From positions 1 to 64,000 of IMG/VR virus record IMGVR_UViG_3300020576_002722: a stretch of 64,000 nt of DNA; one strand, 5' to 3'. The stretch is from a virus (taxonomy: Duplodnaviria > Heunggongvirae > Uroviricota > Caudoviricetes). Shown here in pieces: positions 25,142 through 64,000 of the stretch. Made by a program: the position numbers and the translations under genes. Below the pieces are notes generated by a model that had not been told where the DNA came from, did not search any database, and saw nothing but the letters and a program-made list of their open reading frames with translations. Within the stretch, counting starts at the first letter, position 1. Every line of letters starts with the position of its first letter.

Positions 25142-25142
25142 C

Positions 25143-25535
25143 ATGGTGCGAATCGTATCCCATACCAGGATCAAGAAGCTCAGTGGCAAGGGCTACTGGA
25201 TATCGAAGATCTGTGTGCTCGATGAGCGCGGAAACACCGTGTTCGATTGCTACGCCCTGGAGGATGCGGCTGAGTGCCCTCCGGTAGGTACATGGGAGCT
25301 TGTCCTGGAGTACTCGCCCAAGTTCGGCAGGAAGCTGTACGAGATGAAGGGGATACCTGGCAGGGCCGAGATCAAGTACCACGTCGGAAACACCTTGGCC
25401 GACACCGACGGGTGCCCGCTACTCGGAGCCAACTACATCGGCAACACTGTCAATGGATCACGCCTAGCGCTTGATCGATTCATGAGGGCCATGCGTGGCG
25501 TCGACTGCACGACGGTCACCATATCGATCCAATAG
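25143..25535 (+). CDS. Hypothetical protein with H-x-G-N...D-x-G-C motif (130 aa; possible L,D-transpeptidase-fold or cell-wall hydrolase)
   Basis: Starts 2 nt after tRNA-Gly. Has KYHVGNTLADTDGCPLLGANY. Followed by a terminator hairpin. Confidence 0.45.
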   Translation: MVRIVSHTRIKKLSGKGYWISKICVLDERGNTVFDCYALEDAAECPPVGTWELVLEYSPKFGRKLYEMKGIPGRAEIKYHVGNTLADTDGCPLLGANYIGNTVNGSRLALDRFMRAMRGVDCTTVTISIQ

Positions 25536-31606: not shown

Positions 31607-31990
31607 TCAGCGCCCGGATCGAGGGTAGAAGACCCCTTTCATGTAGTCGTTCACGTCTGTCATGAACTCCTCTAGGGAGCGGCATTCATAGACTATCCAT
31701 CCAGCCTCTGAGAACCTGATCTGCATCTCTTTCTGTGACTCGGATAGCTTGCCTTTGTCAGACTTCATCTCGATGGCCATGCCGCAGACGTGCGTATCTC
31801 CATACGTCCTGGGATGGCACACCAGGATATCAGGGACTCCGGCCAGTACCCCCATGTCCTTCCACAATTTCCCCATGTGTGGACTCCCGGCATCTCTGCC
31901 ATTGGGAGGGTGGAACGCCAGGACGTTAGGGTACTGTAACCGGAGCCACTTGATACACGCCTTCTGGAGCGCTTGTTCTGGACGCTTCAT
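31607..31990 (-). CDS. VRR-NUC domain nuclease (127 aa)
   Basis: Start refined to MKRPEQALQK (ATGA overlap with the RNA ligase stop). AIEMKSDKGKLSESQKEM and VLAGVPDILVCHP fit the PD-(D/E)xK VRR-NUC fold. Confidence 0.6.
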   Translation of the reverse strand: MKRPEQALQKACIKWLRLQYPNVLAFHPPNGRDAGSPHMGKLWKDMGVLAGVPDILVCHPRTYGDTHVCGMAIEMKSDKGKLSESQKEMQIRFSEAGWIVYECRSLEEFMTDVNDYMKGVFYPRSGR

Positions 31991-33063
31991 TCCTCGTACT
32001 TGAGAAGGAACTGAGGATTGATCGCCTTGAACGATATGCGTCCACGGGTCACCGTCTTGCCGGTGATGAAGGTCTCGGTCATCTCTTCCAGGCTGCGCAC
32101 CACGATCCCCTCGGCCCATACGTCGGGGTTGATGGCGCTCTTGCGGGTGGCGAAACCAACCAGCTCGTCAACACTGAGGGCACCAAGGGTGAGGCAGTCG
32201 ATGTACGGGACCATCTTCAGGTCCATCGATCCGAATGCGACTGCGGCATCGCTAGGCAGGTACGGCTTGCCGGCATCGATGTCGAACACGTTGAAGAAGA
32301 GAACCTTGCGGCCGGTCAGCTTGTACTTGTTGCCCTGGATCCCTTCGCCGATCAGCTCGCCCTGGATGGCGATGTTCTTGCCGTAGTCGCGGAGCTTCTG
32401 CTCGACGTTCATCTCTCGGGCGTACTGCCAGAACGCATTCCTTTCGTCCTCCTTCAGCTCCAGGTTGCGCGAGCAGACCCCGAACTCCCCGTTGTACAGG
32501 TAGAAGGTAGCGCTGCTGCCGTCCATCTTCTCGCGGATCTCCACCTGCGCTGCGGCGTACTTGTCCAGGATGCCTGGCATGTTCTGGATCCGCTCCTCGT
32601 CCGTCTTGTGGATGAAGGATGGGAAGTAGCCGCGCACGGTACCGCCCAGGCAGGCCGGGATGGCGGGCTCGTACTTGATGATGCCGAGCAGCTCTGTCAC
32701 ATCGTACCCTTCTGCTGACAAGCCCAAGGCTGCGAACAGCTCGTGCTCGGCCGTGATAACATCGGCAAGGATCGACACCGGCATCATCAGGCCCTGGGAT
32801 ACCTGTCCCTTGAGTTTGATGGTGCGCACACGCATGTGGCGTGGCTTCATGAACTCGAACTCTGGTCGGTCAGGAAGGATGCTGTCCGGCTCTATGAATA
32901 CGATCGAATCGCCAATTCTGTGTCCGGCATCGTTCCTGATCACGCACTTCCACCCCAATACGCTGGCTACGGACACTTCGTCGGCTCCGGGTATTGGCTG
33001 GATGTCAGAGATCGTCTGTATGCTTGCAAGTTTTCTGCTCATGATTTTGTGTTTGAGAGCCAT
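31987..33063 (-). CDS. ATP-dependent RNA ligase, DraRnl/Rnl5-like (358 aa)
   Basis: N-terminal MSRKLASIQTISDIQPIPGADEVSVASVLGWKCVI OB-like module and KMDGSSATFY nucleotidyltransferase motif I (KxDG). Confidence 0.65.
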   Translation of the reverse strand: MALKHKIMSRKLASIQTISDIQPIPGADEVSVASVLGWKCVIRNDAGHRIGDSIVFIEPDSILPDRPEFEFMKPRHMRVRTIKLKGQVSQGLMMPVSILADVITAEHELFAALGLSAEGYDVTELLGIIKYEPAIPACLGGTVRGYFPSFIHKTDEERIQNMPGILDKYAAAQVEIREKMDGSSATFYLYNGEFGVCSRNLELKEDERNAFWQYAREMNVEQKLRDYGKNIAIQGELIGEGIQGNKYKLTGRKVLFFNVFDIDAGKPYLPSDAAVAFGSMDLKMVPYIDCLTLGALSVDELVGFATRKSAINPDVWAEGIVVRSLEEMTETFITGKTVTRGRISFKAINPQFLLKYEE

Positions 33064-37946: not shown

Positions 37947-38687
37947 CTATCCGTTGTATGATCGACCGACATCTTGCGATGAGTCGTCTGACCTTGTGGG
38001 TATGTATTGGCCTCCGTCCGACTTGATGGACCCCTTCACGGTTCCATTGGTCTTCATGAAGTGCCTGAATCGTTCCCTATCTTCGGGCTTCCAGTCCATC
38101 TCCGGCTTGACCGGCCCCAGGTCATCCTCCATCTTCAGATCCTCCACATACTCCTCCAGTTGCTTGGGTTTCGCTGCAACGAAGGAGAACCAGTCGGGCT
38201 TCTCGTACTTGTTGGAGCCCTTCATGCCGGCGTTGATAGAGCTGGCTGCCATGAGCCACTTGATGTCGTCGTATACCTCGGAGGATGTCTGTATCCTGCG
38301 CACGCCATAGATGATCGTAGCGTGGTCCCTGCTGTACGCTGCGGCGATCGATACATAGGTCAGCCCCATCTTGCGCAGCAGCCACCAGGCCACCATGCGT
38401 GCATTGGCCGCCGTGGCATTGTACCTGAGACCGGATCGCATGATCTCGTCGGTCAGCCCGTGGCACAGTACCTCGCTCATGGCCGACAGTACAGCCTCGT
38501 TCGCCTTGGTAACGAACTCGGGCGAAGACATCGATTGCGACATCTTCTGTGAGGCACGCAGCTGCTTGTCCCGAAGGATGCAACCTGCCACGACTCCATC
38601 GATGTCCTTTGTCCCGAGGGACGCCCTCTGTCTGATGTACTTGGCCAGGTGGCCAGGTACCGTGATCGTCATCATCTCTGCTTCCAT
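37947..38687 (-). CDS. DnaA C-terminal domain (domain IV)-like HTH DNA-binding protein (246 aa)
   Basis: ARMVAWWLLRKMGLTYVSIAAAYSRDHATIIYGVRRIQ resembles the DnaA domain IV helix-turn-helix. Start codon abuts tRNA-Arg. Confidence 0.55.
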   Translation of the reverse strand: MEAEMMTITVPGHLAKYIRQRASLGTKDIDGVVAGCILRDKQLRASQKMSQSMSSPEFVTKANEAVLSAMSEVLCHGLTDEIMRSGLRYNATAANARMVAWWLLRKMGLTYVSIAAAYSRDHATIIYGVRRIQTSSEVYDDIKWLMAASSINAGMKGSNKYEKPDWFSFVAAKPKQLEEYVEDLKMEDDLGPVKPEMDWKPEDRERFRHFMKTNGTVKGSIKSDGGQYIPTRSDDSSQDVGRSYNG

Positions 38688-38688
38688 G

Positions 38689-38760
38689 AGGCCCCGCCAG
38701 GAGTCGAACCTGGATCTAGCGTTTAGGAAACGCTCGTTCTGTCCATTGAACTATGAGGCC
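38689..38760 (-). tRNA. tRNA-Arg (anticodon CCT)
   Basis: Reverse complement folds as a cloverleaf: acceptor GGCCTCA/CGGGGCC (one A-C mismatch at the stem base), D-arm GTTC-AATGGACA-GAAC, anticodon stem AGCGT/ACGCT with loop TTCCTAA, T-arm CCAGG-TTCGACT-CCTGG. Confidence 0.7.
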
Positions 38761-38845
38761 AAGTGGTGTCGGGTGTGAAACAGGATACCTGTCGTCGAAC
38801 CAGGTAAACGCCCCTGCGTTGCCTTCGGGGCACCCGACACCGGGA

Positions 38846-41010: not shown

Positions 41011-41077
41011 GTTTGTTGGTTTGAGGTTGCGAATCTAGTGTGCGTTGTCGACTTGTCAACATTCGTGTGACGAATAG

Positions 41078-41275
41078 TTAGCCCACGATCTCGGTAGACA
41101 CGATCGTTGCCCCCGTGGCCGACTCGATGAATTTCTGTGCCGTATGCTCGGCCATCTCTTCGGTCTGGTATACCGGGTAGTCGATCACCAGGCGAACGGT
41201 CCTGTACTTGGCGAAGTCTGTTGCGTTGGCCGGGTTGCGCGGATCTGTGTCGGCCCCTTCTGGTATGTTGTTCAT
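41078..41275 (-). CDS. Small hypothetical protein (65 aa)
   Basis: Stop codon embedded in a 16-nt repeat. Confidence 0.3.
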   Translation of the reverse strand: MNNIPEGADTDPRNPANATDFAKYRTVRLVIDYPVYQTEEMAEHTAQKFIESATGATIVSTEIVG

Positions 41276-43941: not shown

Positions 43942-43970
43942 GTGTGTGTGTGTGTTGAGGATTGTACCTC

Positions 43971-44014
43971 GCGGGCCTCCCGGTCTCGAACCGGGAAGAC
44001 TGCCTGTGGCCCCG
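43971..44014 (-). ncRNA. tRNA-like minihelix element TL1
   Basis: T-arm CCCGG-UUCGAGA-CCGGG flanked by acceptor-like complementary ends. Sits between the 44019 stop and the parB-like start. Confidence 0.4.
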
Positions 44015-44751: not shown

Positions 44752-45096
44752 GTTCCTTGTGTGTGGGCACAAAAATGGGGAACCGTTTCCGATTCCCCAA
44801 ATCTGTGTGACGAATAGTTAAGGGCGGCCGCTCACTTCGCCCTCAGAAGGACATGCGCTTTCCGTACAGGACCAGATCGCCATTGTTGCGGATCAGGTTG
44901 CGCATGATCTCCTTCATGCGACCGGTGGGTGACTTTTTGCCATGCGTGCCAGTCCATTGTTCTACATGCCGCGCCCCGAACAGGTGCTATGACCTGTTCG
45001 CGAGCGAATGGATCCCTGACGGGGCGCGGGCTTATTGTAAGTTACGGCATTCACGAAGTACGGTCATAGCTCGGCAAATGTATGAACTATTCCGAA

Positions 45097-45432
45097 TCAG
45101 TCGTTGGGGTGTTTGAACGCGTTAGGGTCCTGTCCGGGACGTGTGATCGTATTGGTGCGCAGCACGAAGGCGTACACCGCACAGCCACCCACCGGAGTAA
45201 TGATGCCGTGCGACGTTATGGTGTACCCGTGGTCGAATGCCCACCGATAGATCACATCCAGTGAGTTCTCGTCCTCCGGGGTGAACGGAACCACCTCGCT
45301 GTACTCGAACCGGGCTACCTTGATGCGGACGCGCATCCCACGGCGTTCGGTCGGCTGCATGTACGTGCCGGTGGCCACCAGTGCGTTATTCTGGTGGTTG
45401 GCCCCTCGTTGTGTCATCCTGTTCTTTCTCAT
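45097..45432 (-). CDS. Hypothetical protein (111 aa from MRKNRMTQ)
   Basis: Start placed 10 nt downstream of the ATGTGA-loop hairpin, as for other genes in this cluster. Confidence 0.45.
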   Translation of the reverse strand: MRKNRMTQRGANHQNNALVATGTYMQPTERRGMRVRIKVARFEYSEVVPFTPEDENSLDVIYRWAFDHGYTITSHGIITPVGGCAVYAFVLRTNTITRPGQDPNAFKHPND

Positions 45433-45442
45433 TGTCGTTGAT

Positions 45443-45456
45443 GGCGATGTGACGCC
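45443..45456 (-). promoter_or_regulatory. Conserved-loop hairpin H1 (GGCG-AUGUGA-CGCC on + strand)
   Basis: 10 nt upstream of the 45432 start. Confidence 0.5.
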
Positions 45457-45459
45457 ATG

Positions 45460-45500
45460 TGCGCGTCCCGGAATCGAACCGGGACGTGAACCGTTCGCGC
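45460..45500 (-). ncRNA. tRNA-like minihelix element TL2
   Basis: GCGCG-AACGGUUCACGU-CCCGG-UUCGAUU-CCGGG-ACGCGC. No D or anticodon arm. Abuts the 45504 stop. Confidence 0.45.
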
Positions 45501-45503
45501 TTA

Positions 45504-45752
45504 CTATTCTTCGCCCTGAGCGATGACAGGGAGTCCGTGGAACGCTATGTCGTTCCGGTATGTTTCGAGCGCCTCTGCTATCGACCTGCATTCAGCGACG
45601 ACCCCCTCGGGGGTGTGCATGATAACGCGTCGGAAGCCCCTGGTGATGGCGATGCCTCGTAGCTGGCAGGCCAGCGACAGGGTGTCCCATTTGGTCCGGC
45701 GCGGGTCCTGCTGGGACTGGTGCCGGGTCATCGAGTGGTGCGCTGTGTACAT
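45504..45752 (-). CDS. Hypothetical protein (82 aa)
   Basis: TGATG coupling to the upstream gene. Stop abuts a tRNA-like element. Confidence 0.35.
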   Translation of the reverse strand: MYTAHHSMTRHQSQQDPRRTKWDTLSLACQLRGIAITRGFRRVIMHTPEGVVAECRSIAEALETYRNDIAFHGLPVIAQGEE

Positions 45753-45961
45753 CACTTTTCCTCGTTGTAGTGTGACTGTGCCCGTCGCAGCGCATCAGCG
45801 AAGTCCGTCTGAGCCTCATTGGTATCGCAGTAGTGCATCAGGTCGGCCAAGATGTCGCAAACCGTGTTGGCGTTGTCGTCGGCACCAAGTTCGGCCACAT
45901 ACGCATCGACCAGCTTGGCACCCATTGCCGCCCGGTCCTTGTTCGTTCTTTCGATGTCCAT
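45752..45961 (-). CDS. Small acidic hypothetical protein (69 aa from MDIERTNKD)
   Basis: Start preceded by the AACCAAUACCCAAAACAAC leader. Confidence 0.4.
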   Translation of the reverse strand: MDIERTNKDRAAMGAKLVDAYVAELGADDNANTVCDILADLMHYCDTNEAQTDFADALRRAQSHYNEEK

Positions 45962-45980
45962 GTTGTTTTGGGTATTGGTT

Positions 45981-46027
45981 TGAGCCTGCGGGCGGAATCG
46001 AACCGCCCTGAGTACTCCATTGCAGGC
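45981..46027 (-). ncRNA. tRNA-like minihelix element TL3
   Basis: GCCUGC-AAUGGAGUACUCA-GGGCGG-UUCGAUU-CCGCCC-GCAGGC-UCA. Confidence 0.45.
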
Positions 46028-46035
46028 TGCCGGGT

Positions 46036-46461
46036 CTACGACCACTCGGTGATCAGCGCCACTTTGTCGGCGTTCAGTCCCCACGTATTCGCCCGGTCGC
46101 GGAGCCTCGACTGGACCCCTTCTACCGTGCGCGACTGTTCGTATTCCTCGCCGGGTCCATCGTGCGCCGTTTGCATGTCCACGAAGAAATTCTGCGGCAA
46201 CACCGGCAGATAGTCCTTCGCAGCTTCATACACATCATCGTTGCGTATGAATGATGTGCCGCCGGAGTTCAACATCGAATCCAGCTTGACGGCCACATTA
46301 TCCGGCAACATGCAGCCGACGGCGCAGCTTGTTCCGCCCGGTCCACGATAGGCGCACCCTGTTGCTGGTGCCATTGCCCGACGCCTCTGCTTGGCCATGT
46401 GTTCGACGATGAAGTCGAACGTTTGCTGCATGTCCATCTTCTTGATATCCTCCGTGTTCAT
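46036..46461 (-). CDS. Hypothetical protein (141 aa)
   Basis: Start 11 nt after the hairpin (GCACAUGAACA-AUG). Confidence 0.5.
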   Translation of the reverse strand: MNTEDIKKMDMQQTFDFIVEHMAKQRRRAMAPATGCAYRGPGGTSCAVGCMLPDNVAVKLDSMLNSGGTSFIRNDDVYEAAKDYLPVLPQNFFVDMQTAHDGPGEEYEQSRTVEGVQSRLRDRANTWGLNADKVALITEWS

Positions 46462-46472
46462 TGTTCATGTGC

Positions 46473-46488
46473 GGGCAATGTGATGCCC
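46473..46488 (-). promoter_or_regulatory. Conserved-loop hairpin H2 (GGGCA-AUGUGA-UGCCC)
   Basis: 11 nt upstream of the 46461 start. Confidence 0.5.
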
Positions 46489-46491
46489 TGT

Positions 46492-46530
46492 GCTGCCCCC
46501 GGAATCGAACCGGGGGAGAACCATTGCAGC
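46492..46530 (-). ncRNA. tRNA-like minihelix element TL4
   Basis: GCUGC-AAUGGUUCU-CCCCCGG-UUCGAUU-CCGGGGG-CAGC. Abuts the 46531 stop with a 0-nt gap. Confidence 0.45.
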
Positions 46531-47022
46531 TTACAGGTCGAGTGCGTCGATGCGCCCCACCATCTTGCGGGCCTTGGCGATGTCGCCCACCGTGGCCGTG
46601 CAGTGTACCAGATGCTCGGTGAGCACCTCGATCATGTCGCGGGCCTCGCGCAGCACACCGGACACCGTCTCGAAGTCCACGGGGACATCTTCGGACTCTT
46701 CCATCCATGCCGTCTCCACATACTGCTGCTGGCCGTACGTGATCACGCCCAAGCTCACCAAGAGCTTCAGCGCGTCGTGGATGTTGTTGAAGCCCCTGAT
46801 GGCCTGCACTCGTCCATCCACGCTGCCGTACACGGTCCAGAACACGCTGTTTGCTGGCGCATCCTCTGGAGGCTCGACGCCGTTGAGCGGTTGCGTATCG
46901 GTGCCGTCATCCATGCACAGGGAAAGCTCGTACGAGTTGAATGTACCGACATTGGAGGTGTCCTTCGTGAACAGCCACCGGTCGGGGCGCTTCTCGTCGT
47001 GCATCCGTTCTACTTTGGTCAT
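46531..47022 (-). CDS. Hypothetical protein (163 aa from MTKVERMHDE)
   Basis: Start refined using the hairpin-spacer rule. Stop directly abuts a tRNA-like element. Confidence 0.5.
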   Translation of the reverse strand: MTKVERMHDEKRPDRWLFTKDTSNVGTFNSYELSLCMDDGTDTQPLNGVEPPEDAPANSVFWTVYGSVDGRVQAIRGFNNIHDALKLLVSLGVITYGQQQYVETAWMEESEDVPVDFETVSGVLREARDMIEVLTEHLVHCTATVGDIAKARKMVGRIDALDL

Positions 47023-47034
47023 TGGTTCATGGTA

Positions 47035-47052
47035 GCGCAATGTGATGCGCTG
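47035..47052 (-). promoter_or_regulatory. Conserved-loop hairpin H3 (AGCGCA-AUGUGA-UGCGCU)
   Basis: 12 nt upstream of the 47022 start. Confidence 0.5.
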
Positions 47053-47121
47053 GTGGAGCCGGGGGAATCGAACCGCCCGCGAATGCGCTCTACTTGCTGC
47101 GCAAGGGTACCATAGCTCCAC
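47053..47121 (-). ncRNA. tRNA-like element TL5 (near full length, non-canonical)
   Basis: Perfect 7-8 bp acceptor GUGGAGC/GCUCCAC, 3' CCAG, T-loop GGUUCGAUUCC. The 35-nt insert does not fold into canonical D and anticodon arms. Confidence 0.4.
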
Positions 47122-47128
47122 GCCTTCT

Positions 47129-47884
47129 TCACGATAGCCTGTTGGCGCTCGATGTTGCACCGGACACCGGCCTATTGAAATTCACATTGTCTCCAGCAGA
47201 ACGACCGGAGTTGTAGGCATCCCTGCTTCCTGCGTGTCTGCGGCTTGTCGTGGTCCGCAGCTTCACCCCAAGGTCGCCCAGATACTTCTTGTACTTCTGG
47301 ACGGTCACATTGCTCTTCACGACCATAATGGCCGTGCATGAGTTGCCCTCTGCCGCCTTTCGCTCTGCCACCATGCGACGTAGTCGTTCGGCGATACGTG
47401 ATCCCATGCCGAGCATGAACGAGGCACGCAGAGTACGACCGTGCATACTGGTACCGCCATCTCGTTTGAGGCGCTTCAATTCAGCCTGCTTCAGCTTCCA
47501 CGCCTGCTCCATAGCTCCCTGTATCATGTCGCACAGGTAGAAGGCCATCTCGGTGTCTTTGGCGGTTCCGAAGTATAGCATTTCGCCGTTGTACCACTTC
47601 GTCACCTTGGTATCGGTGAACTCGGAAATGGCAACGGAGCACGAGTTTACCACCTCAGGCCACCTGTTCATATTCACGCCCGTGGCGTACGGACGCTTTC
47701 GGGCACCGTACTGGTCACCCATGATGGACGCCTCGTCCATAGTGATGTTGTATTCGCGGATAAGGGAGTCCAACTTCTGTGCTGCCGCGATGGCCTCTGC
47801 CTCAGTGCAACCGTTGCTAACGGTACGCGCCTGAAGCTCCCGGATGATGCGGGCTATCCGCTCCCGATTAACGTTCTGTTCCAT
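47129..47884 (-). CDS. DUF2786-like phage protein (251 aa)
   Basis: N-terminal IARIIRELQARTVSNGCTEAEAIAAAQKLDSLIREYNI pattern typical of the DUF2786 family. Inference from memory. Confidence 0.45.
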   Translation of the reverse strand: MEQNVNRERIARIIRELQARTVSNGCTEAEAIAAAQKLDSLIREYNITMDEASIMGDQYGARKRPYATGVNMNRWPEVVNSCSVAISEFTDTKVTKWYNGEMLYFGTAKDTEMAFYLCDMIQGAMEQAWKLKQAELKRLKRDGGTSMHGRTLRASFMLGMGSRIAERLRRMVAERKAAEGNSCTAIMVVKSNVTVQKYKKYLGDLGVKLRTTTSRRHAGSRDAYNSGRSAGDNVNFNRPVSGATSSANRLS

Positions 47885-47895
47885 TGTTCATGTGT

Positions 47896-47913
47896 ATACC
47901 CATGTGAGGGTAT
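47896..47913 (-). promoter_or_regulatory. Conserved-loop hairpin H4 (AUACCC-AUGUGA-GGGUAU)
   Basis: 11 nt upstream of the 47884 start (ACACAUGAACA-AUG). Confidence 0.5.
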
Positions 47914-47916
47914 TGG

Positions 47917-47971
47917 AACGGTGGATGGTGTCGATCCATCAGCACGCGTGCTCACCGGCCGGGGCACCGTT
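47917..47971 (-). ncRNA. tRNA-like element TL6 (variant T-loop AUCGACA)
   Basis: 7-bp acceptor AACGGUG/CACCGUU followed by CCA. T-arm GAUGG-AUCGACA-CCAUC. 23-nt insert with palindromes. Confidence 0.35.
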
Positions 47972-47977
47972 CAGGTA

Positions 47978-48370
47978 TTACATTAGGCCCAGACCACGCA
48001 GGGCGCTCATATCCTTGTCGAAGCTCGCCGGCCACTTCACCGTGGACAGGTCGCGCACGAACGTCGACGCCTCCGCGTCAAGGAACAGGCACCCACCGAT
48101 GGACACCTTGAATGGGTTCGGTTGCAGCCCGTTCCACGCTGCGAACGCCAGAGGGTCACTCATGGCGCTCGGAGCCTTCTTCAGTAGCCGCATGTGCTTC
48201 TGTGGCCCGACCTTGTAGAAGGCCCTCTGGATGGCGTCCAGATGCGTCTGCGGGATGTCGCACCCGTGCTGCGCCTTGTGGATGTCCTTGGCCACGTTCT
48301 GGGCCAGTTGCAGTGCGGTCATACGTTGGACCTTGTCGGCGTGCTCTGCGTACGCCTTCGCTGTGCTCAT
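47978..48370 (-). CDS. Hypothetical protein (130 aa)
   Basis: Start preceded by the ACAAACCAAUACAACCACAGAACA leader. Confidence 0.5.
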   Translation of the reverse strand: MSTAKAYAEHADKVQRMTALQLAQNVAKDIHKAQHGCDIPQTHLDAIQRAFYKVGPQKHMRLLKKAPSAMSDPLAFAAWNGLQPNPFKVSIGGCLFLDAEASTFVRDLSTVKWPASFDKDMSALRGLGLM

Positions 48371-48394
48371 TGTTCTGTGGTTGTATTGGTTTGT

Positions 48395-48434
48395 GCCCGC
48401 CGTGGAATCGAACCACGGCGTGAACCGTTCGGGC
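48395..48434 (-). ncRNA. tRNA-like minihelix element TL7
   Basis: GCCCG-AACGGUUCAC-GCCGUGG-UUCGAUU-CCACGGC-GGGC. Overlaps the 48434 stop by 1 nt. Confidence 0.45.
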
Positions 48435-48538
48435 TACTGGTCGGCCAGTGTCTGGTCGTCGGGCCGCTGTTGCGACCGCTTCTGTTCAGCCTTGCGGCGT
48501 TCGTGCTCTTCGCGGAGCACCTGTGTGTAGTGCGTCAT
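48434..48538 (-). CDS. Possible micro-ORF (34 aa, MTHYTQVLREEHERRKAEQKRSQQRPDDQTLADQ)
   Basis: ATG 2 nt after the upstream stop. The longer ORF-track frame is GC junk. Weak. Confidence 0.2.
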   Translation of the reverse strand: MTHYTQVLREEHERRKAEQKRSQQRPDDQTLADQ

Positions 48539-48540
48539 AG

Positions 48541-48765
48541 TCAGTTCAGGGTGAGTCGTGGTACTACAACGAAGGCCCCCAGTTCCCGGTGGAACACGTA
48601 GCGTGCCCCGATAGTGGAGCACAGGCATACACGGCCCTCGGCCATCAGTACCCGTGCATAGGTGGGCACCTTGTCGATGGGGTCGAGTCGTAGGCACCCG
48701 TCTATCAGGTGCCCGTCAAGGTCGTGGGCCAGCGCTGCGGCCCGCTCTTGGTCCTTGGTATTCAT
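48541..48765 (-). CDS. Small hypothetical protein (74 aa)
   Basis: Start 10 nt after hairpin H5. Confidence 0.4.
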   Translation of the reverse strand: MNTKDQERAAALAHDLDGHLIDGCLRLDPIDKVPTYARVLMAEGRVCLCSTIGARYVFHRELGAFVVVPRLTLN

Positions 48766-48775
48766 TCGTCAGTGG

Positions 48776-48793
48776 ACGGCAATGTGATGCCGT
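48776..48793 (-). promoter_or_regulatory. Conserved-loop hairpin H5 (ACGGCA-AUGUGA-UGCCGU)
   Basis: 10 nt upstream of the 48765 start. Confidence 0.5.
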
Positions 48794-48796
48794 TGT

Positions 48797-48838
48797 GCGC
48801 GGGCAGGGAGTCGAACCCCGCCCTCGGACCATCCGCGC
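48797..48838 (-). ncRNA. tRNA-like minihelix element TL8
   Basis: GCGCGG-AUGGUCCGA-GGGCGGGG-UUCGACU-CCCUGCCC-GCGCA. Confidence 0.4.
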
Positions 48839-48840
48839 TG

Positions 48841-49122
48841 TTACTTCCACACTTCCGCCACCACCTCAGGTGGCGCATCCTCGGTCGCCCTGCACATTTC
48901 CCAACCAGTGGTGCTCAGGATGGCTTGGCCGTACTTCTCGTCGCACTTGACACTGACCACTTGCCCTTGGTGTACCGGGTTGGACCCATAGGCCGACGGA
49001 TACGCCTCAAAAGCCTCGCCATCGCGAGCTATCAGGATGGCGTGCCTCAGGCCGAACGAATTGGTGTTGGTGGACAAGATGGCCACCTTGAACTCCTTAC
49101 GGAGCATGGATGTCTGGTTCAT
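48841..49122 (-). CDS. Hypothetical protein (93 aa from MNQTSMLRKE)
   Basis: ATGA overlap with the upstream zinc-ribbon gene. The N-terminal part of the ORF-track entry is out-of-frame junk. Confidence 0.45.
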   Translation of the reverse strand: MNQTSMLRKEFKVAILSTNTNSFGLRHAILIARDGEAFEAYPSAYGSNPVHQGQVVSVKCDEKYGQAILSTTGWEMCRATEDAPPEVVAEVWK

Positions 49123-49268
49123 CGCTTTGCTGGTGTTGGTTTCTTCTCGGTGTAGAACATCATCCCGCACTGGTAGCAGCGGAAATGGATGATGGTGCCC
49201 ATGAGTCCCATAGGCGCGTTGGTCGTGCTGCACATGGGGCAGCTACGGCGTACTCGTTGCCATGCCAT
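49119..49268 (-). CDS. Zinc-ribbon micro-protein (49 aa, MAWQRVRRSCPMCSTTNAPMGLMGTIIHFRCYQCGMMFYTEKKPTPAKR), not in the ORF track
   Basis: CPMC...CYQC. Start exactly 10 nt after hairpin H6. ATGA overlap with the next gene. Confidence 0.4.
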   Translation of the reverse strand: MAWQRVRRSCPMCSTTNAPMGLMGTIIHFRCYQCGMMFYTEKKPTPAKR

Positions 49269-49278
49269 TGTCTGTTGG

Positions 49279-49294
49279 TCGCAATGTGATGCGA
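49279..49294 (-). promoter_or_regulatory. Conserved-loop hairpin H6 (UCGCA-AUGUGA-UGCGA)
   Basis: 10 nt upstream of the 49268 micro-ORF start. Confidence 0.5.
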
Positions 49295-49296
49295 TG

Positions 49297-49342
49297 ATCG
49301 CTGTCTGGACTCGAACCAGATGTCCCGCCTATCGGGCAGCGA
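49297..49342 (-). ncRNA. tRNA-like element TL9 (acceptor + mini-hairpin + T-arm)
   Basis: UCGCUG-CCCG-AUAGG-CGGG-ACA-UCUGG-UUCGAGU-CCAGA-CAGCGA. Confidence 0.4.
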
Positions 49343-49376
49343 AGGGTGCGCTACGTCCTTGGTGGCGCGGTATTGG

Positions 49377-49763
49377 TCAGCCTTGGTTCACCGGCTGAAG
49401 GTGTGCGTTCAGTGTGCGGCCATCGGGCATCAGGAAGAATTGCGGGTTGAACTCGCCCCACTTCTCAGCTTGCGGGCCAACGAGGTAGCCCTTGCCGCCC
49501 CGGTTCCAGTACACGGCGATGGCCTCTTGTCCGAGGGTTTCAGACAACCGGTGGACAAGTGTCTCTTCAACGGCATTCCACCCGGCAGCGCCAACCTCCA
49601 CTACCATCGTCGGTTCGGTGTTGCTGTTTATCGGGCCGTGAAAGGTGAGCGGAGCGTGGATGCCTGTGTCGGTCGGATACGTCCTTCGCACCGCATCCAT
49701 TACCTGTTCTACGGTATTGGTTCCGCCGTCCGGCCTGTTGAGGCCGATGTTGAGTGTGAACAT
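49377..49763 (-). CDS. Hypothetical protein (128 aa from MFTLNIGLNR)
   Basis: Start set by the hairpin H7 + 11-nt spacer rule. The longer frame would run through the hairpin and tRNA-like element. Confidence 0.45.
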   Translation of the reverse strand: MFTLNIGLNRPDGGTNTVEQVMDAVRRTYPTDTGIHAPLTFHGPINSNTEPTMVVEVGAAGWNAVEETLVHRLSETLGQEAIAVYWNRGGKGYLVGPQAEKWGEFNPQFFLMPDGRTLNAHLQPVNQG

Positions 49764-49774
49764 TGCTTGGGGAT

Positions 49775-49788
49775 GTCCATGTGAGGAC
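49775..49788 (-). promoter_or_regulatory. Conserved-loop hairpin H7 (GUCC-AUGUGA-GGAC)
   Basis: 11 nt upstream of the 49763 start. Confidence 0.5.
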
Positions 49789-49794
49789 ATTGTG

Positions 49795-49868
49795 GACCGT
49801 ACGGGAGTCGAACCCGCCGTCAAACCCCACCCGGGGCGGCCCTGTATTGCTCCACGGCTCAGTACGTC
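49795..49868 (-). ncRNA. tRNA-like element TL10 (near full length, non-canonical)
   Basis: Acceptor GACGUAC/GUACgGUC, T-arm GCGGG-UUCGACU-CCCGU. The 42-nt insert has irregular arms. Confidence 0.35.
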
Positions 49869-49877
49869 TTTTGAGGG

Positions 49878-50114
49878 TCAAGCTGCGTCGGGCCCTGAAG
49901 GCATTTCTACCACTTCCTCGTCCCATGTTTCTACCTCGGCCTCGGTGTCTTGGGTGAACTTACCCACGTCTGCAAGGTATTCCGCGCCTGCGGCAAGATT
50001 CTCCTTCAGTTCTTGGATGGATGCCCCGTTCATGGTGTATTCCACCTCGATAGTCAGTCTCAGTTTAGCGGTCTTCATGTTCGTGCTATGCTTAGCGCTT
50101 GTCTTGATATCCAT
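49878..50114 (-). CDS. Acidic hypothetical protein (78 aa)
   Basis: Start 9-10 nt after hairpin H8. Confidence 0.45.
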   Translation of the reverse strand: MDIKTSAKHSTNMKTAKLRLTIEVEYTMNGASIQELKENLAAGAEYLADVGKFTQDTEAEVETWDEEVVEMPSGPDAA

Positions 50115-50123
50115 GGCCTTGAT

Positions 50124-50141
50124 AGCGCAATGTGATGCGCT
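50124..50141 (-). promoter_or_regulatory. Conserved-loop hairpin H8 (AGCGCA-AUGUGA-UGCGCU)
   Basis: 9-10 nt upstream of the 50114 start. Same stem sequence as H3. Confidence 0.5.
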
Positions 50142-50659
50142 GCCTGTCCACCGGGCATCGCTCCCGGACCTCGTTGGCGGTTAATTACTCCGCCACGTTG
50201 CGCTTCATTAGCTGAACAGGTTGTGCGATGTTTCCGTTATCGTGCATCGCCTCACTGGCCCTTTCATGAGGTGGAGCCATACCCGGTGGCGCATTACGGT
50301 GCGCTCTACCTGCGCCCCCTATCCCGCATCGAAGCGGGTGGCCACGTAGTGACGGTGGTCGCGTCCTGCTAGGGGGTATAGTTCCAAGATGTCAAAGAAC
50401 GCGCTCTAGGTCACACCGCACCGTGTTTCTCGGTACAGTCCCGTTCCCAGCGGCCTTCCTACGGGCCATCGCGGCTAGTAGTTTCGGCACCACATCATGT
50501 GGCTGCTGGTCAGTGCGTTACGTGTGAAAGAACGACGCCTAGCTTGGTGGCCCTCACGGGTGACTGTTGCCGAACGCGATGCAAGTGTAGGCTGCCGCAT
50601 GGCCACCGACCTAATTTCCAGTGACGAACGGTTGGGAACGGGACGAACGGTTGGCCAGA

Positions 50660-50890
50660 CTAGGTGGCTTGATCGCCTGGAGGCCGCGATACTGTAGGCC
50701 AGAACGACATCTTGTAGCCAAGTAGCTGCAAATAGGCTTGGAGCGTAGACATGGACGTGGTAAGCACGTTGGCTTCGAGCCTGGCCACGGTCACTGGCTT
50801 CACCCCGATGCGTTCGGCCACGTCCGCTTGTGACCACCCGAGCCGCCTGCGTTTGGCGATCACAAAGTTGTCCATCTTGCGCCTGGCCAT
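50660..50890 (-). CDS. XRE/Cro-CI-family helix-turn-helix transcriptional regulator (76 aa from MARRKMDNF)
   Basis: LGWSQADVAERIGVKPVTVARLEANV is a classic HTH_3 motif. The upstream part of the ORF-track entry is junk. Confidence 0.6.
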   Translation of the reverse strand: MARRKMDNFVIAKRRRLGWSQADVAERIGVKPVTVARLEANVLTTSMSTLQAYLQLLGYKMSFWPTVSRPPGDQAT

Positions 50891-51159
50891 GCCCCAAAGG
50901 TAAGCGGCCACGCGGATACGGTGATCACGCTGCCCATGCGATAGCGATAGGAGCGGATAGCCCGCAGCCCGAAGGGCGAGGACTATGAGCGGATAGCGCG
51001 GGCCGAAGGCATCGCCCAAAGGATGGAAGCACTCTACTACAAGAGAGAGAACATGCTGGTGATCAGGCTGTTGGACCGGTAACACGTAGACACATAGCCA
51101 TATCACTATGTGTAAGCCCTTTCTCGGGGACAATAGGTGAACGCGTGCGCGTGGTGATC

Positions 51160-60749: not shown

Positions 60750-61204
60750 AGTTTCCAGAGATTCTTCTCAAAGGTATCAGGAATCCTGAAGTCGATGATC
60801 TCTCGGACCACGTTCCAGTTGAGGCCACCCAGGTGGCATCCGATCAATGGGAAGTTGATCGCAAGTGTTCCGTCGATCGCAGCCAAGACGGCTACCTGTT
60901 GCATACACGCATCCATCGCATCGTAACTCGCATACTTCCTCCCGTCCTTTCCGTAGAACTCCTGCGTGAAGCAGTTCATGACGATCGTGTTGTCGCTGCC
61001 GAACAGATGTACCTCTTGAACGTCACCAAGCAAGTGGCCTCCAGGTCTCTTGGACGCAACATGCTTCAAGTACTCAGTGAACACTTTGGGCCACTTGTTC
61101 CGGATGGCGAGCGCCACACCAGATCCCATCACGCCTTGGGTATTAACCCCGTGCAGGATGATGCCTTTCGCGGTGAGAAGGTCACCCTTGATCTCGTTGA
61201 TCAT
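60746..61204 (-). CDS. Macro domain protein (ADP-ribose-binding or ADP-ribosylhydrolase-like, 152 aa)
   Basis: GDLLTAKGIILHGVNTQGVMGSGVALAI matches the macro-domain G-rich phosphate-binding motif. Confidence 0.7.
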   Translation of the reverse strand: MINEIKGDLLTAKGIILHGVNTQGVMGSGVALAIRNKWPKVFTEYLKHVASKRPGGHLLGDVQEVHLFGSDNTIVMNCFTQEFYGKDGRKYASYDAMDACMQQVAVLAAIDGTLAINFPLIGCHLGGLNWNVVREIIDFRIPDTFEKNLWKL

Positions 61205-61986
61205 TTGAAGTAGGAGTCGATGCGTTCGCGGATCTCCCTCATGCTTCCAGCCCTAGTGATCACCCCGTCAGCGAACACCACATCGAAGGCGCAGTCGTGA
61301 ACATCTTCCCATGATGCCTGCTCCTGCAATAGGAACCCGTGATCGTGGTCGTGGTGTACAGCCAGGAGCCCCTTGGCGCTGTTCTTTCCACCATTGTCGG
61401 TCTTCGGCTTCTTGAAGATCTCGCGAGGCTTGTAGTTCACCACTCCGTAGGTGGCCTTGATCGCCATGCCGTAGGTGTCACGGGTCACATACTGGTACGT
61501 GTAGCTGCCGATGCCGAACACGACATTGGTGCTGGCGAACCCTTTCGCGATCAGCCTGTCGACGATCTTCTGGGCACGCTCCGGGGTGATGCTGTCTCCG
61601 TAGATGGCACCGATATGCGGGTCGAGAACCTTGAATCCCTTCTCGTTCACGGTACCTCCGAAGGTGTTCCATAGGCACTCAATGAGCCCTTTGCCCTCTG
61701 GGGTCATCTTGGTAAAGGTTCTAGTACCAGGAAGATGGTATCCGCACAGGATGTCCACCGGATCCCCGCTGTCTGGCCTGATCACCACCTTGCCTTCACG
61801 ATTCATGATCTCTGATTTCAGGGCCGGCAGATACTCGGTGACCACCTTCCAGAAGTCCCATGTGTCGCTGACGATGCTGATGATCCCGGACGGATGTACC
61901 TCAGTGATCAGGCGCTTGAAGTGGAGAAATTCCCCTCTTGTAAGTCTCTCTTCTTCAGAGAGTTTCCTTGTCCGTGTTTTCTTCAT
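61201..61986 (-). CDS. nadV: Nicotinamide phosphoribosyltransferase, C-terminal half (separate ORF, 261 aa)
   Basis: IVSDTWDFW, VIRPDSGDP, IYGDSIT and VVFGIGSYTYQYVTRDTYGMAIKATYGVVN align with the C-terminal catalytic half of NAMPT. Confidence 0.8.
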   Translation of the reverse strand: MKKTRTRKLSEEERLTRGEFLHFKRLITEVHPSGIISIVSDTWDFWKVVTEYLPALKSEIMNREGKVVIRPDSGDPVDILCGYHLPGTRTFTKMTPEGKGLIECLWNTFGGTVNEKGFKVLDPHIGAIYGDSITPERAQKIVDRLIAKGFASTNVVFGIGSYTYQYVTRDTYGMAIKATYGVVNYKPREIFKKPKTDNGGKNSAKGLLAVHHDHDHGFLLQEQASWEDVHDCAFDVVFADGVITRAGSMREIRERIDSYFK

Positions 61987-62012: not shown

Positions 62013-62675
62013 ATGATCGGGACAAAGATATGCTCCAGATGCAAGGATCGAAAGGTTCTTGACGAATTTCCAGTGAACTCCAGGTTCCCGGACGGAAGGA
62101 ACTCCAAATGCAAGCTCTGTACGAACGCACTGAACAAGGCTTACAGGGACTCCAATAAGGAGGCATTCTGCGCATCCAGGAGAAGGCACTACATAGCAAA
62201 CCTGGAGAAGATGCGATCTGGAAGGCGAAAGTACGCCGCATCCAACAAGGACAAAAAGAGCCAGTATGATGTATCGTACAGGGCTCAAAACAAATCCAAA
62301 ATAGCGGCCTACAAGAAACAGTGGGAAAGGAACCTCATGAGTGACCCTGTGTTCAGGATCAAGAGAAACCTTCGCCGCAGGATTAGTCACGTCCTTAACG
62401 GAAGACTGAAGACGGCAGATACGTTCAGCCTCGTTGGATGTACGCCGTCCGAGTTCAGGGACCACATTCAGTCCCAATGGACCGAAGGGATGTCCTGGGA
62501 TAACTACGGATACCGTGGATGGCATGTTGATCATGTGATACCGTGCTGCTCATTTGATCTGTCTACCGAGGATGGCCAGAGAAGGTGTTTTCACTTCAGC
62601 AACCAAAGGCCGCTATGGGCATTAGACAACCTTCGGAAGGGCAGGAAGATCCCTGACCCACTTCCATTGTCCTGA
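62013..62675 (+). mobile_element. HNH homing endonuclease gene (220 aa) on the strand opposite to the nadV gene it splits
   Basis: CSRCKDRK and CKLC zinc knuckles. GYRGWHVDHVIPCCSF...NQRPLWALDNLRKG HNH core. AT-rich relative to flanks. Its 3' end overlaps the nadV N-half tail by 54 nt. Confidence 0.75.
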
Positions 62676-63452
62676 CGCCTCGTCGTACTCCTCTTCAACC
62701 TCCAGCACCTCTTCTGCATAATCTGTTGATGCAAGGCAGCAGACAGCATGTTCTGTGGCCGGCACCGAGTATCCGTCTGCACCTCCGTAGTACTCGTCAC
62801 AGAAGTCGAGCGCAGCGAACGTATCGGTCCCAAGGAACGATGTCAGGTGCGCGGCACCGCTCATGATAGCGGCCTCCACTCCGAACATCCCGCGCATCGA
62901 GAAGTCGTGGCCCTGGAACTTGACGAAGAACTTGTCGCCGCCACTCATTTCTGCGGCCCCCTCCAGGATCTGCCGGTACCGGAACGCCGTAGTTGCTGAC
63001 GTGATCATCGGCCACAGGGTGACAGACATCAGGGTCTCCAGGTAGTTCGGCAGCCAGTAGGCGCTCGGGTGCGTGTTGTAGGTCACCAGGAACGGGACCT
63101 TTGTCCGGACCTTTGATCCTTCAGGCAGCGCCATGATCGTGATCGGCAGGTATCCTAGATCATGCAGCTCTTCGATATGCTTCATCGATACCTTGTCGGG
63201 CCCAAGGTACGCGTCGATGCGCTTCTTGTAGGCAGCGACCGCGTCAGCCTTCGGAACCCCGAAGAAGGATTCATTCCACTCCTTTATCAGGTAGCGCTTG
63301 ATGTAGTACTTGAGGCCAAAGAAGATGTTGTAGTCGACACCAGGAATGCGGCTGCTCCTTGATGTCATGTTGTTGAACACGAGCGACGTTCCTTCCGGGA
63401 ACATGGGCGCATGTCCCACCTTGTATCCGTCTGTCAGGTTGAGCGCTTTCAT
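62622..63452 (-). CDS. nadV: Nicotinamide phosphoribosyltransferase, N-terminal half (276 aa from MKALNLTDGYK)
   Basis: LNLTDGYKVGHAPMFPEG, FQGHDFSMRGMFGVEAAIMSGAAHLTSFLGTDT and GYSVPATEH align with the NAMPT N-terminal half. The last ~40 aa do not align and read into the spacer. Confidence 0.8.
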   Translation of the reverse strand: MKALNLTDGYKVGHAPMFPEGTSLVFNNMTSRSSRIPGVDYNIFFGLKYYIKRYLIKEWNESFFGVPKADAVAAYKKRIDAYLGPDKVSMKHIEELHDLGYLPITIMALPEGSKVRTKVPFLVTYNTHPSAYWLPNYLETLMSVTLWPMITSATTAFRYRQILEGAAEMSGGDKFFVKFQGHDFSMRGMFGVEAAIMSGAAHLTSFLGTDTFAALDFCDEYYGGADGYSVPATEHAVCCLASTDYAEEVLEVEEEYDEASGQWKWVRDLPALPKVV

Positions 63453-64000
63453 ATCTCTGTGCGGTTGATGCGTGATTCGTCGATACTGTCGAGCATGAAC
63501 GAGTTGGTCGTGTAGATGGCGTCGATTCCGTCGTTCAGCAATACGTCTAGGCCGTGCGTGAAGAGGCCGTGCGTGGCGCATAGGATGACCTTCTGGGCTC
63601 CGGCGTACTTCAGCTTCTTGGACAGCTCGATGAACGTCCTTCCTCCGTCGCAGATGTCGTCGACGATGATGACATCCTTATTGAGTAGGTCTGCTCCCAT
63701 GATCGCACCTGGGATCACTTTTCCGTCCTCCCTCCTCTTCGTCGTGAAGCAGATGCCATTGGTGTTGCCAACTGCGGCCGACATCAGGTCCACGCGCTTC
63801 ATGGCACCCAAGTCTGGTGCGCAGAACACAGCGTCAGGATACGCGGCCTTCGCAGCCATGACGTGGCCGACGAACCGCATGGTCGTGTAGTTGTCGATCA
63901 GCGCCGGCATCACATCGCTGTGCGGATCCAATGACATCACGCTCGTGTACCCCTGCGCATTGATCAACTTAGCCATGACCGACGCCGACAGGGCCTCCCC
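63449..64000 (-). CDS. prs: Ribose-phosphate pyrophosphokinase (PRPP synthetase), 5'-partial at the window edge
   Basis: VIIVDDICDGGRT PRPP-binding loop. Aligns with the C-terminal two-thirds of Prs. Frame stays open to the window end. ATGA-coupled to nadV. Confidence 0.8.
   Translation of the reverse strand, partial: GEALSASVMAKLINAQGYTSVMSLDPHSDVMPALIDNYTTMRFVGHVMAAKAAYPDAVFCAPDLGAMKRVDLMSAAVGNTNGICFTTKRREDGKVIPGAIMGADLLNKDVIIVDDICDGGRTFIELSKKLKYAGAQKVILCATHGLFTHGLDVLLNDGIDAIYTTNSFMLDSIDESRINRTEI

Follow-up and report, generated by a model that had tools for sequence, protein, structure and literature searches.

What reads a hairpin whose loop is the same in every copy while its stem differs from copy to copy, and why does it recur shortly before start codons? 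The question arises from a Caudoviricetes phage (Duplodnaviria; Heunggongvirae; Uroviricota) known as IMG/VR record IMGVR_UViG_3300020576_002722, of which positions 1 to 64,000 were analyzed; this stretch of 64,000 nucleotides (nt) is called the window below. Its minus strand encodes, at 45097..50114, an array of 13 small open reading frames (ORFs; gA to gM) between a cro-like helix-turn-helix (HTH) gene and ParB and replication genes. Only gH gave Pfam matches (DUF7168 and DUF2786). Across 45.2 to 50.4 kb, this strand carries eight hairpins of 16 to 18 nt (H1 to H8; Table 1), all with the loop UCACAU, as a preliminary description of the DNA had reported.

The stems were taken at maximal pairing. 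They are perfect, 5 to 6 base pairs (bp) long, and of seven different sequences among the eight copies: AGCGCA (twice), AUGUCC, UCGCA, ACGGCA, AUACCC, GGGCA, and AUGGCG. Every stem listed earlier was recovered, two of them (H1 and H7) extending 2 bp further, and with the full stems the ATG follows after 8 to 11 nt; the previous range of 9 to 12 nt stemmed from the shorter H1 and H7 stems. The spacer is A/C-rich and has no Shine-Dalgarno sequence. Each hairpin starts 1 to 4 nt past the 3′ end of a transfer RNA (tRNA)-like element, itself located 3′ of the upstream stop codon, and is oriented in the same direction as the genes. The hexamer TCACAT is not itself enriched, with 35 copies in the window, matching expectation. 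All eight copies inside 45.4 to 50.2 kb are flanked by a perfect 5- to 6-bp stem; none of the 27 remaining copies reaches a 5-bp stem, and one reaches 4 bp when a G-T pair is counted. Mononucleotide shuffles produced, on average, 0.5 hairpins with stems of 4 bp or longer, and never more than 3. When recurrent hairpin loops in the window were ranked by an unbiased count, TCACAT came first (8 copies) and the T-loop TTCGATT second. A covariance model of the hairpins found exactly eight matches in the window at 30 to 35 bits, the next match scoring 13.6 bits (E 0.27). Near-copies of the loop motif noted earlier at 24990, 41065, and 44805 fell outside the family (E > 10).

Covariation was measured on an alignment of nine hairpin copies. 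Of the cells in this alignment, 94% were paired, and four of the six pairs had been altered on both sides (14 cells), yielding a score that 0 of 500 shuffles reached and confirming the covarying stems of the preliminary description. All six loop bases were invariant, as was the C-G pair second from the loop. Since stem positions diverged and the six loop positions did not, the loop sequence is evidently under selection, for which a trans-acting reader is the simplest cause. The covarying arms and the conserved asymmetric center point to structure-specific recognition, the reverse of the footprint of a dimeric DNA-binding protein. A cruciform or double-stranded DNA operator, once proposed as the alternative, is unlikely on the same grounds, with symmetric arms that vary and an asymmetric center that does not. 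In their native context the hairpins were predicted to form with P > 0.9 and the loop to be unpaired with P ≥ 0.92. Fixed orientation and the 1- to 4-nt abutment to a structure at the RNA level argue for a hairpin on minus-strand RNA. Nor are the hairpins plus-strand terminators, a role that the preliminary description had weighed against its own reading: they have no U/T run, and none of the eight was listed on either strand in a terminator scan. Around them, the minus strand is rich in A and C and the plus strand shows a mixture of G and T, and the aligned flanks contained no conserved linear motif.

In agreement with the earlier observation, all eight hairpins lie between a tRNA-like element and a start codon, although the elements upstream of H4 and H8 have degenerate T-loops (Table 1). 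Each element begins at or just past the upstream stop codon. It consists of an acceptor-like stem (usually with G first), a short linker with an invariant GG at the D-loop position, and a T-arm, usually with GGUUCGAnUCC, and is followed by one unpaired base and often by CA. Across seven tRNA-like paralogs, covariation extends to 9 of the 11 pairs, one of the pairs being G-U; the G-U pair in the T-stem of U5, the element upstream of H5, indicates that the structure forms on minus-strand RNA. Rfam at gathering thresholds returned only five true tRNAs in the whole window and nothing on the hairpins. A permissive Rfam search of 40 to 56 kb gave two sub-threshold matches, both on tRNA-like elements and none on hairpins, to the tRNA-like domain of transfer-messenger RNA (tmRNA). 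This was the sole similarity found, and neither ARAGORN nor Rfam called the elements tRNAs. Elements of this kind also occur without a UCACAU hairpin, in two array units (gG and gK) and before the ParB-like gene, where they are followed by A/C-rich leaders of 21 to 30 nt. In the early operon, at least 12 tRNA-like minihelices stand directly after stop codons (45461-50170, 43972-44014, and about 38780-38840, minus strand); they probably serve as RNase P/Z-type punctuation of the operon.

True tRNA genes of this phage show a related arrangement. One base past the discriminator of a tRNA-Gly (25070-25143, plus strand) stands the ATG of a 130-amino-acid (aa) ORF (25143), which may encode a DUF5675-type protein. 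A tRNA-Arg (38687-38760, minus strand) has an in-frame ATG at the same position (38687), before a DnaA_C-domain gene for which gene callers start 15 nt downstream. These abutting ATGs suggest that a tRNA 3′ end beside a start codon is a habit of this genome, and tRNA 3′ processing would yield leaderless or near-leaderless mRNAs at both ORFs.

Variant contigs revealed which parts of the array move together. The phage database contained no nucleotide-level match to this phage. An identical ParB-like protein was found on 21 metagenomic contigs, among which three array types, with 8, 7, and 3 hairpins, were recovered. Array variants (contigs L120, L121, and L122) shared flanking DNA with 96 to 99% identity and differed in gene content. 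The loop was unchanged in all variant contigs carrying hairpins, and H1 was kept in L120, L121, and L125 to L128. Units shared across variants had zero substitutions in hairpin or spacer and some in downstream codons. In every variant contig carrying them, gB, gE, and gM had a hairpin and gG and gK had none; gJ had one in 2 of 2 contigs. The H4 module (AUACCC-UCACAU-GGGUAU-ACACAUGAACA-AUG) occurred with three different ORFs downstream and two different tRNA-like elements upstream; its hairpin and spacer are fused to gJ in L120, whereas in L121 they follow another tRNA-like element and precede the third ORF. Hairpins of the AGCGCA type precede at least four ORFs, the H3 hairpin appears in two further contexts in L121, and the H7 hairpin with gB follows a different tRNA-like element in L120 and L121. 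Conversely, the tRNA-like element of the H6 unit is followed in L120 by a hairpin-less leader and another gene. L121 also contains a chimeric hairpin, uCGCA-UCACAU-UGCGcu, with the crossover in the loop and one mismatched outer pair, and in this contig a recombinant hairpin has kept an 11-nt spacer before an internal Met codon of gA. Since the moving module comprises hairpin, spacer, and ATG, it is best assigned to the downstream gene, as its leader or initiation module, and not to the upstream gene as a 3′ element.

The junctions that separate L120, L121, and L122 were heterogeneous: directly 5′ of the hairpin stem, at the 5′ edge of the tRNA-like element, in the T-loop interior, and in the loop interior. 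Crossovers were mapped at both edges of tRNA-like elements, and one inside the shared spacer ACAUGAACAAUG deleted two genes in L120. To judge by these comparisons, the region consists throughout of cassettes that recombine with one another. The tRNA-like elements also differed between orthologs. U6, the element upstream of H6, has three compensatory base-pair changes in L120 in spite of flanks that are about 96.6% identical; in L121, the T-stem of the gK-unit minihelix has been fully exchanged yet is still complementary, and U3, the element upstream of H3, is present in a short form without its extra arm. Covariation and these compensatory changes indicate that the tRNA-like structure is under selection.

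Some smaller features of the leaders were noted. Three spacers have an extra out-of-frame AUG (46459-46472, 47882-47895, and 47020-47033, minus strand), which in the gJ spacer results from a 7-nt tandem duplication (ATGAACA-ATGAACA); these spacers look like recombination scars at start codons. A common small upstream ORF was considered and dismissed: upstream AUGs are found in the H1, H7, and H2 to H4 units, but their frames and lengths are inconsistent. In the ParB unit, a small hairpin, GAGG-UACAAU-CCUC (43957-43970, minus strand), stands just past the tRNA-like element, with a 6-nt loop at the same position but of a sequence other than UCACAU. Between the cro-like gene and the first cassette, about 500 nt (50146-50660, minus strand; L120, 5278-5725; L121, 4419-4867) are noncoding and highly structured, with further T-arm-like hairpins (CCCGC-UUCGAUG-CGGG) and a third AGCGCA copy, a potential competitor of the H8 stem. 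Variant contigs have other sequence in the downstream part of this stretch.

A constrained loop, covarying stems, restriction to one strand, and the link to start codons form a signature consistent with the earlier proposal of a site read on RNA by a trans-acting factor. The reading that we tentatively favor is that the hairpin is a cis-acting RNA element at mRNA 5′ ends freed by tRNA-type processing, where its loop would be read by a putative trans-acting factor that regulates the cassettes together, at the level of translation or stability. Boxes of the Bacteroidota −7 promoter type (TAnnTTTG) occur directly before gene starts and before a tRNA operon of this phage, several of them 4 to 7 nt from the ATG. 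The absence of such a box from the minus strand between 50902 and 45082 suggests that the array is one transcription unit; neither a TAnnTTTG nor a sigma-70-like box was found in or beside the hairpins. Transcription from the promoter of the cro-like gene would then produce one long minus-strand transcript of the array. Host tRNA-processing enzymes would cut it at the minihelices that follow the stop codons: RNase P would cleave on the 5′ side, and the cut past the discriminator would be made by an RNase Z-type enzyme or another 3′ activity. Each freed mRNA would start 1 to 4 nt before a hairpin and continue through 8 to 11 nt of unstructured, A/C-rich sequence to the AUG. The hairpin would cap the processed 5′ end, and its UCACAU loop, held on a helix of fixed length, would be the handle for the factor, most likely a phage or host protein, that adjusts translation or stability for all hairpin-bearing cassettes jointly. 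Together, hairpin and spacer would make up a portable initiation and regulation module, moved before new ORFs by recombination. The sequences themselves show the structure, the covariation of hairpin stems and tRNA-like elements, the constant loop, the positions, and the portability of the module; we infer the function, transcription of the array as one unit, cutting of the tRNA-like elements, and both the existence of a binding factor and the way it acts. A more far-reaching formulation, which we regard as doubtful, is that an early polycistron is cut at tRNA mimics by host tRNA-processing enzymes and that the UCACAU hairpin is a portable tag read by a specific protein or by the ribosome, giving a new operon grammar of stop codon, tRNA mimic, tag, short leader, and AUG.

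The preliminary description had also suggested a structured replacement for the ribosome-binding site, and this part was not supported. No Shine-Dalgarno sequence was found at the gene starts examined across the window, where leaders are A/C-rich, and because nearly all other genes and two array units do without the hairpin, it is not a general substitute for a ribosome-binding site. Disruption of the stem in silico left start-site accessibility nearly unchanged (0.65 to 0.60), and the promoters of this phage often lie 4 to 7 nt from the ATG.

Several observations weigh against a leader hairpin read through its loop. The stems contain no G-U pair, so the hairpin alone cannot tell RNA from DNA. 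Total leader length is 27 to 32 nt with the hairpin and 21 to 30 nt without it, and given this similarity, a limit on how long the leader can be may account for part of the fixed spacing before the AUG. The two array units that lack the hairpin indicate that it is dispensable for expression. Among the array proteins, of which only that of gH had a Pfam match, no candidate RNA-binding protein was found. Finally, the motif was seen in one phage lineage only, at strain-level divergence.

The hairpin could instead be a passive 5′-terminal stem-loop, its loop unread, that shields the processed, monophosphorylated end from 5′-end-dependent RNases and maybe insulates the start from the G+C-rich tRNA-like fold. 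In E. coli, base pairing at the 5′ terminus shields mRNAs from RNase E; in the present array, the hairpins fold very stably in context, and their position 1 to 4 nt past the tRNA-like 3′ end would leave hardly any single-stranded 5′ tail. We nevertheless consider such a cap unlikely, since six invariant loop bases and an invariant C-G pair go unexplained by it while other stem positions vary, and the small change in accessibility upon stem disruption also speaks against insulation. A loop that is read on nascent RNA is offered by nut/boxB-like antitermination, in which a phage protein bound to the hairpin would ride RNA polymerase, and a new hairpin would be required after each cut because cleavage severs the tether. 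At the head of the early operon, the cro-like gene is followed after about 520 nt by the first hairpin; a hairpin directly follows each presumed cleavage site; and a 5- to 6-bp stem with a small conserved loop is of boxB-like size. However, lambda boxB has a 5-bp stem and a GNRA-like pentaloop, in contrast with the hexamer UCACAU, two cleavage units have no hairpin, no boxA-like partner was seen beside the hairpins, no N-like protein was identified, and no minus-strand terminators are predicted inside the array. Antitermination would also need neither the fixed 8- to 11-nt distance to the AUG nor the co-transfer of hairpin and spacer to an ATG, and it appears most improbable. The array does encode a 34-aa Arg/Lys-rich peptide, gF, which is missing from L120, the variant with 3 hairpins.

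A DNA-level role resembling that of the N4 virion RNA polymerase promoters is very unlikely as well. Here a phage RNA polymerase would recognize the hairpin extruded from DNA and start transcription a few nucleotides past the stem, each cassette would yield a leaderless or short-leader mRNA, and the tRNA-like element would only form the 3′ end of the preceding transcript. N4 promoters, too, are small hairpins in front of early genes, recognized by their structure, with a variable stem and conserved bases. In this phage, the distance to the ATG is short and fixed, host-type promoters of this phage often lie 4 to 7 nt before the ATG, and the all-Watson-Crick stems are compatible with DNA. But N4 promoters have a 5- to 7-bp stem and a 3-nt loop, unlike the 6-nt loop of all copies here, and the 1- to 4-nt abutment to a covarying RNA structure would go unexplained. 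Nor did the large ORFs tested give a polymerase match in Pfam or PHROG (with about 14 kb of the approximately 78-kb genome outside the window); a D-x-D-x-D motif was present in 0 of 8 large proteins, and the 2753-aa protein had no PDB match. The hairpins might also be primarily recombination sites that shuffle cassettes like PeSL or attC, their position before start codons being secondary. Contigs with an identical ParB-like protein and about 96 to 99% identical flanking DNA yet 3, 7, or 8 hairpins and different gene sets fit this view, as do crossovers inside the loop (L121), in ACAUGAACAAUG (L120), at the T-loop, and at both tRNA-like edges, and PeSL motifs behave alike (PMC2839356, PMC4122927). 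Heterogeneous breakpoints, however, fit homologous or microhomology exchange at any repeat and not one cleavage site, and neither a recombinase nor an HUH nuclease is annotated beside the array, so that recombination looks like a consequence of repetition. Homology-driven exchange would moreover favor identical rather than covarying stems and leaves the invariant loop on differing stems unexplained. Integron attC sites are imperfect palindromes of approximately 57 to 141 nt with R/L boxes and extrahelical bases, whereas the present hairpins are perfect, 16 to 18 nt long, and without a GTTRRRY core, have no recombinase domain recorded around the array, and recombine at no one fixed point. A primary role in recombination is in our judgment highly improbable.

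The favored RNA element resembles several known systems. Like the MS2 and PP7 coat-protein operators and the IRE-IRP system, it combines a fixed-length helix of variable sequence with an invariant loop beside the initiation region, and its presence on several mRNAs of one expression class follows the logic of the T4 RegA regulon. It differs from the MS2 and PP7 operators, which have a bulged purine and the start in or at the hairpin, in that it has no bulge, its loop sequence is unrelated, and the ATG lies 8 to 11 nt outside the hairpin. In contrast with such loop-read operators, it is coupled to a tRNA-like structure in a host without Shine-Dalgarno use. An anticodon-arm mimic or codon display was also considered, as CAC and CAU are His codons and CAU is the Met anticodon, but was rejected by reasoning: the loop has 6 nt, not 7, and misfits anticodon-loop geometry. 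The tRNA-like elements are reminiscent of mitochondrial tRNA punctuation and t-elements and of MALAT1-mascRNA, which also place acceptor and T-arm mimics between coding units, where cuts by RNase P and RNase Z set the mRNA ends; here the mimics, maintained with covarying pairs, stand in a bacteriophage operon, and such cleavage is presumed. Eight tandem units of tRNA-like element plus hairpin are known from another viral genome, in the TMER genes of murine gammaherpesvirus 68. There, tRNase Z cleaves at the tRNA 3′ end and so determines where the hairpin RNA begins; the system is eukaryotic, its transcripts are made by Pol III, and its hairpins are precursors of microRNAs. Unlike them, the present hairpin stands at the start of an mRNA leader.

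Among phage phenomena on record, the closest is the start-associated sequence (SAS) of Cluster K mycobacteriophages, a conserved linear 13-mer (GGGATAGGAGCCC) with a Shine-Dalgarno core 3 to 7 nt before the start (PMC3203893). SAS and ESAS occur in one orientation upstream of the starts of nonstructural genes from different families; ESAS has conserved 17-bp inverted repeats around a variable spacer, and for SAS, a role in initiating translation or in binding a factor from host or phage has been proposed (PMC3203893). The association with start codons is alike, but in our phage the arms vary and the center is conserved, there is no 13-mer or Shine-Dalgarno sequence, and the host phylum is another. 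PeSL of T4-type phages consists of an early promoter and a terminator-like stem-loop of conserved sequence (PMC2839356, PMC4122927). Here as there, repeated intergenic stem-loop motifs flank small ORFs of hyperplastic regions and bound insertions, deletions, and replacements between close relatives; in contrast with PeSL, the present hairpin has no promoter consensus and no U-tract, and its partner is a tRNA-like fold.

More distant relatives did not carry the motif. ParB-like relatives (38 to 47% identity), tail-fiber relatives, and a primase relative (38%, with syntenic DnaA_C-DnaB-primase) had neither hairpin nor tRNA-like punctuation. Pattern scans of IMG/VR, JGI metagenomes, and GTDB genomes gave only chance matches beside real tRNAs, and protein-anchored IMG/VR scans with gH and gJ found no motif carrier. 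In the literature searched, nothing matched the hairpin and no paper dealt with tRNA-like punctuation of phage operons. The hairpin is best described as belonging to the class of loop-read leader hairpins, in an unusual architecture and without an Rfam family.

In Bacteroidota and their highly abundant phages, the choice and regulation of start sites are poorly understood, since initiation there does not rely on Shine-Dalgarno pairing. The hairpin is a compact, directly testable 18-nt motif, for which the hairpin-less array units are natural controls within the operon. That it is coupled to covarying tRNA mimics suggests that phage operons can be punctuated by tRNA-processing machinery taken from the host, as is known from organelles and one herpesvirus. 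If true, such an operon grammar would let new genes plug in by recombination and be regulated at once. The array displays live modular evolution of accessory genes, and the module of hairpin and leader might be put to use as a portable part for gene expression in Bacteroidota.

Table 1. Hairpins, tRNA-like elements, and promoter boxes, with positions in the window and strand in parentheses
Feature	Position (strand)	Sequence or structure	Context
H8	50124..50141 (-)	AGCGCA-UCACAU-UGCGCU, loop from 50135	9-nt spacer to gA ATG (50114); 30.2 bits
H7	49773..49790 (-)	AUGUCC-UCACAU-GGACAU, loop from 49784	9-nt spacer to gB ATG (49763)
H6	49279..49294 (-)	UCGCA-UCACAU-UGCGA, loop from 49289	10-nt spacer to gC ATG (49268)
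H5	48776..48793 (-)	ACGGCA-UCACAU-UGCCGU, loop from 48787	10-nt spacer to gE ATG (48765)
H4	47896..47913 (-)	AUACCC-UCACAU-GGGUAU, loop from 47907	11-nt spacer ACACAUGAACA to gH ATG (47884)
H3	47034..47051 (-)	AGCGCA-UCACAU-UGCGCU, loop from 47045	11-nt spacer to gI ATG (47022)
H2	46473..46488 (-)	GGGCA-UCACAU-UGCCC, loop from 46483	11-nt spacer GCACAUGAACA to gJ ATG (46461)
H1	45441..45458 (-)	AUGGCG-UCACAU-CGCCAU, loop from 45452	8-nt spacer to gM ATG (45432)
U1	45461..45500 (-)	Acceptor GCGCG/CGCGC, linker AACGGUUCAC, T-loop UUCGAUU, then A-C	Upstream of H1; directly after stops UAG UAA
U2, minihelix	46492..46530 (-)		Upstream of H2
U3	47053..47121 (-)	Extra arm; 3′ end ...GGCUCCACCA	Upstream of H3; Rfam tmRNA tRNA-like domain, 13.2 bits, below threshold
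U4	47916..47972 (-)	8-bp acceptor, extra arm, degenerate T-loop AUCGACA	Upstream of H4
U5, minihelix	48797..48838 (-)	G-U pair in T-stem	Upstream of H5
U6	49298..49342 (-)		Upstream of H6
U7	49795..49868 (-)		Upstream of H7
U8, minihelix-like hairpin	50146..50170 (-)	GGUCCGGG-AGCGAUG-CCCGGUGGAC; degenerate T-loop AGCGAUG	Upstream of H8; a reading of the sequence, in neither the minimum-free-energy fold nor the T-loop scan
tRNA-like minihelix without hairpin (T-loop 48414)	48395..48434 (-)	Then ACA and 21-nt A/C-rich leader (AACCAAUAC...)	Before gG ATG (48370)
tRNA-like minihelix without hairpin (T-loop 46004)	45983..46028 (-)	Then UCA and leader AACCAAUACCC...	Before gK ATG (45961)
TACCTTTG box	50895..50902 (-)		4 nt before ATG of HTH_3 (cro-like) gene; sole recognizable host-type promoter upstream of array
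TAnnTTTG boxes	+30695, +51567, +52061, +54108, -50902, -45082, -62030, -22573, +24335		

The near-copies of the loop were followed individually. A kissing-loop antisense RNA was considered for the hairpin that the tRNA operon carries on the plus strand at about 24990 and whose AUGUGA complements the loop. It was rejected: AUGUG pairs with CACAU 6 nt downstream in the predicted fold, so the loop complement is not displayed, and the region folds no better than shuffles (z = -1.2). The other two near-copies belong to a 16-mer, TAACTATTCGTCACAC, that occurs twice on the minus strand (41065-41080 and 44805-44820), each time starting from a stop codon. At 41065 it forms the hairpin AUUCG-UCACA-CGAAU beside TTGACA-N16-TAGATT, and at 44805 it precedes a strong terminator-like hairpin at 44776-44799.

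The gene starts without Shine-Dalgarno sequences, the TAnnTTTG boxes near ATGs, and the homologs of the primase ORF (DUF6371), the named ones of which come from Flavobacteriales and Prevotellaceae, together point to a Bacteroidota-type host with frequent leaderless or short-leader mRNAs. The tRNA operon lies behind a TACATTTG box and comprises four tRNAs, the first of which (24379-24449, plus strand) has an unusual anticodon region to which ARAGORN assigns no anticodon. The early operon that holds the tRNA-like elements also includes an RNA ligase gene (31987-33063, minus strand; phrog_968, E 4e-70), and a syntenic relative (L151) also encodes an RNA ligase. Giant ORFs at 46-17573 on the plus strand (1116, 554, 2753, and 1159 aa) are essentially without detectable homologs or domains, the 2753-aa protein having no match in Pfam or PHROG either. 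The gene for nicotinamide phosphoribosyltransferase appears to be split into N- and C-terminal ORFs (61201-61986 and 62622-63581, minus strand), between which lie divergent TAnnTTTG boxes and a plus-strand ORF at 62013-62675; this may reflect an inserted element or a two-part NAD-salvage gene. Directly before the ParB-like ATG, a (CA)n run (43942-43957, minus strand) differs by about 1 to 3 CA repeats between otherwise identical contigs (L121, L123, L124, L125, and L128), making the leader length of the ParB-like gene hypervariable.

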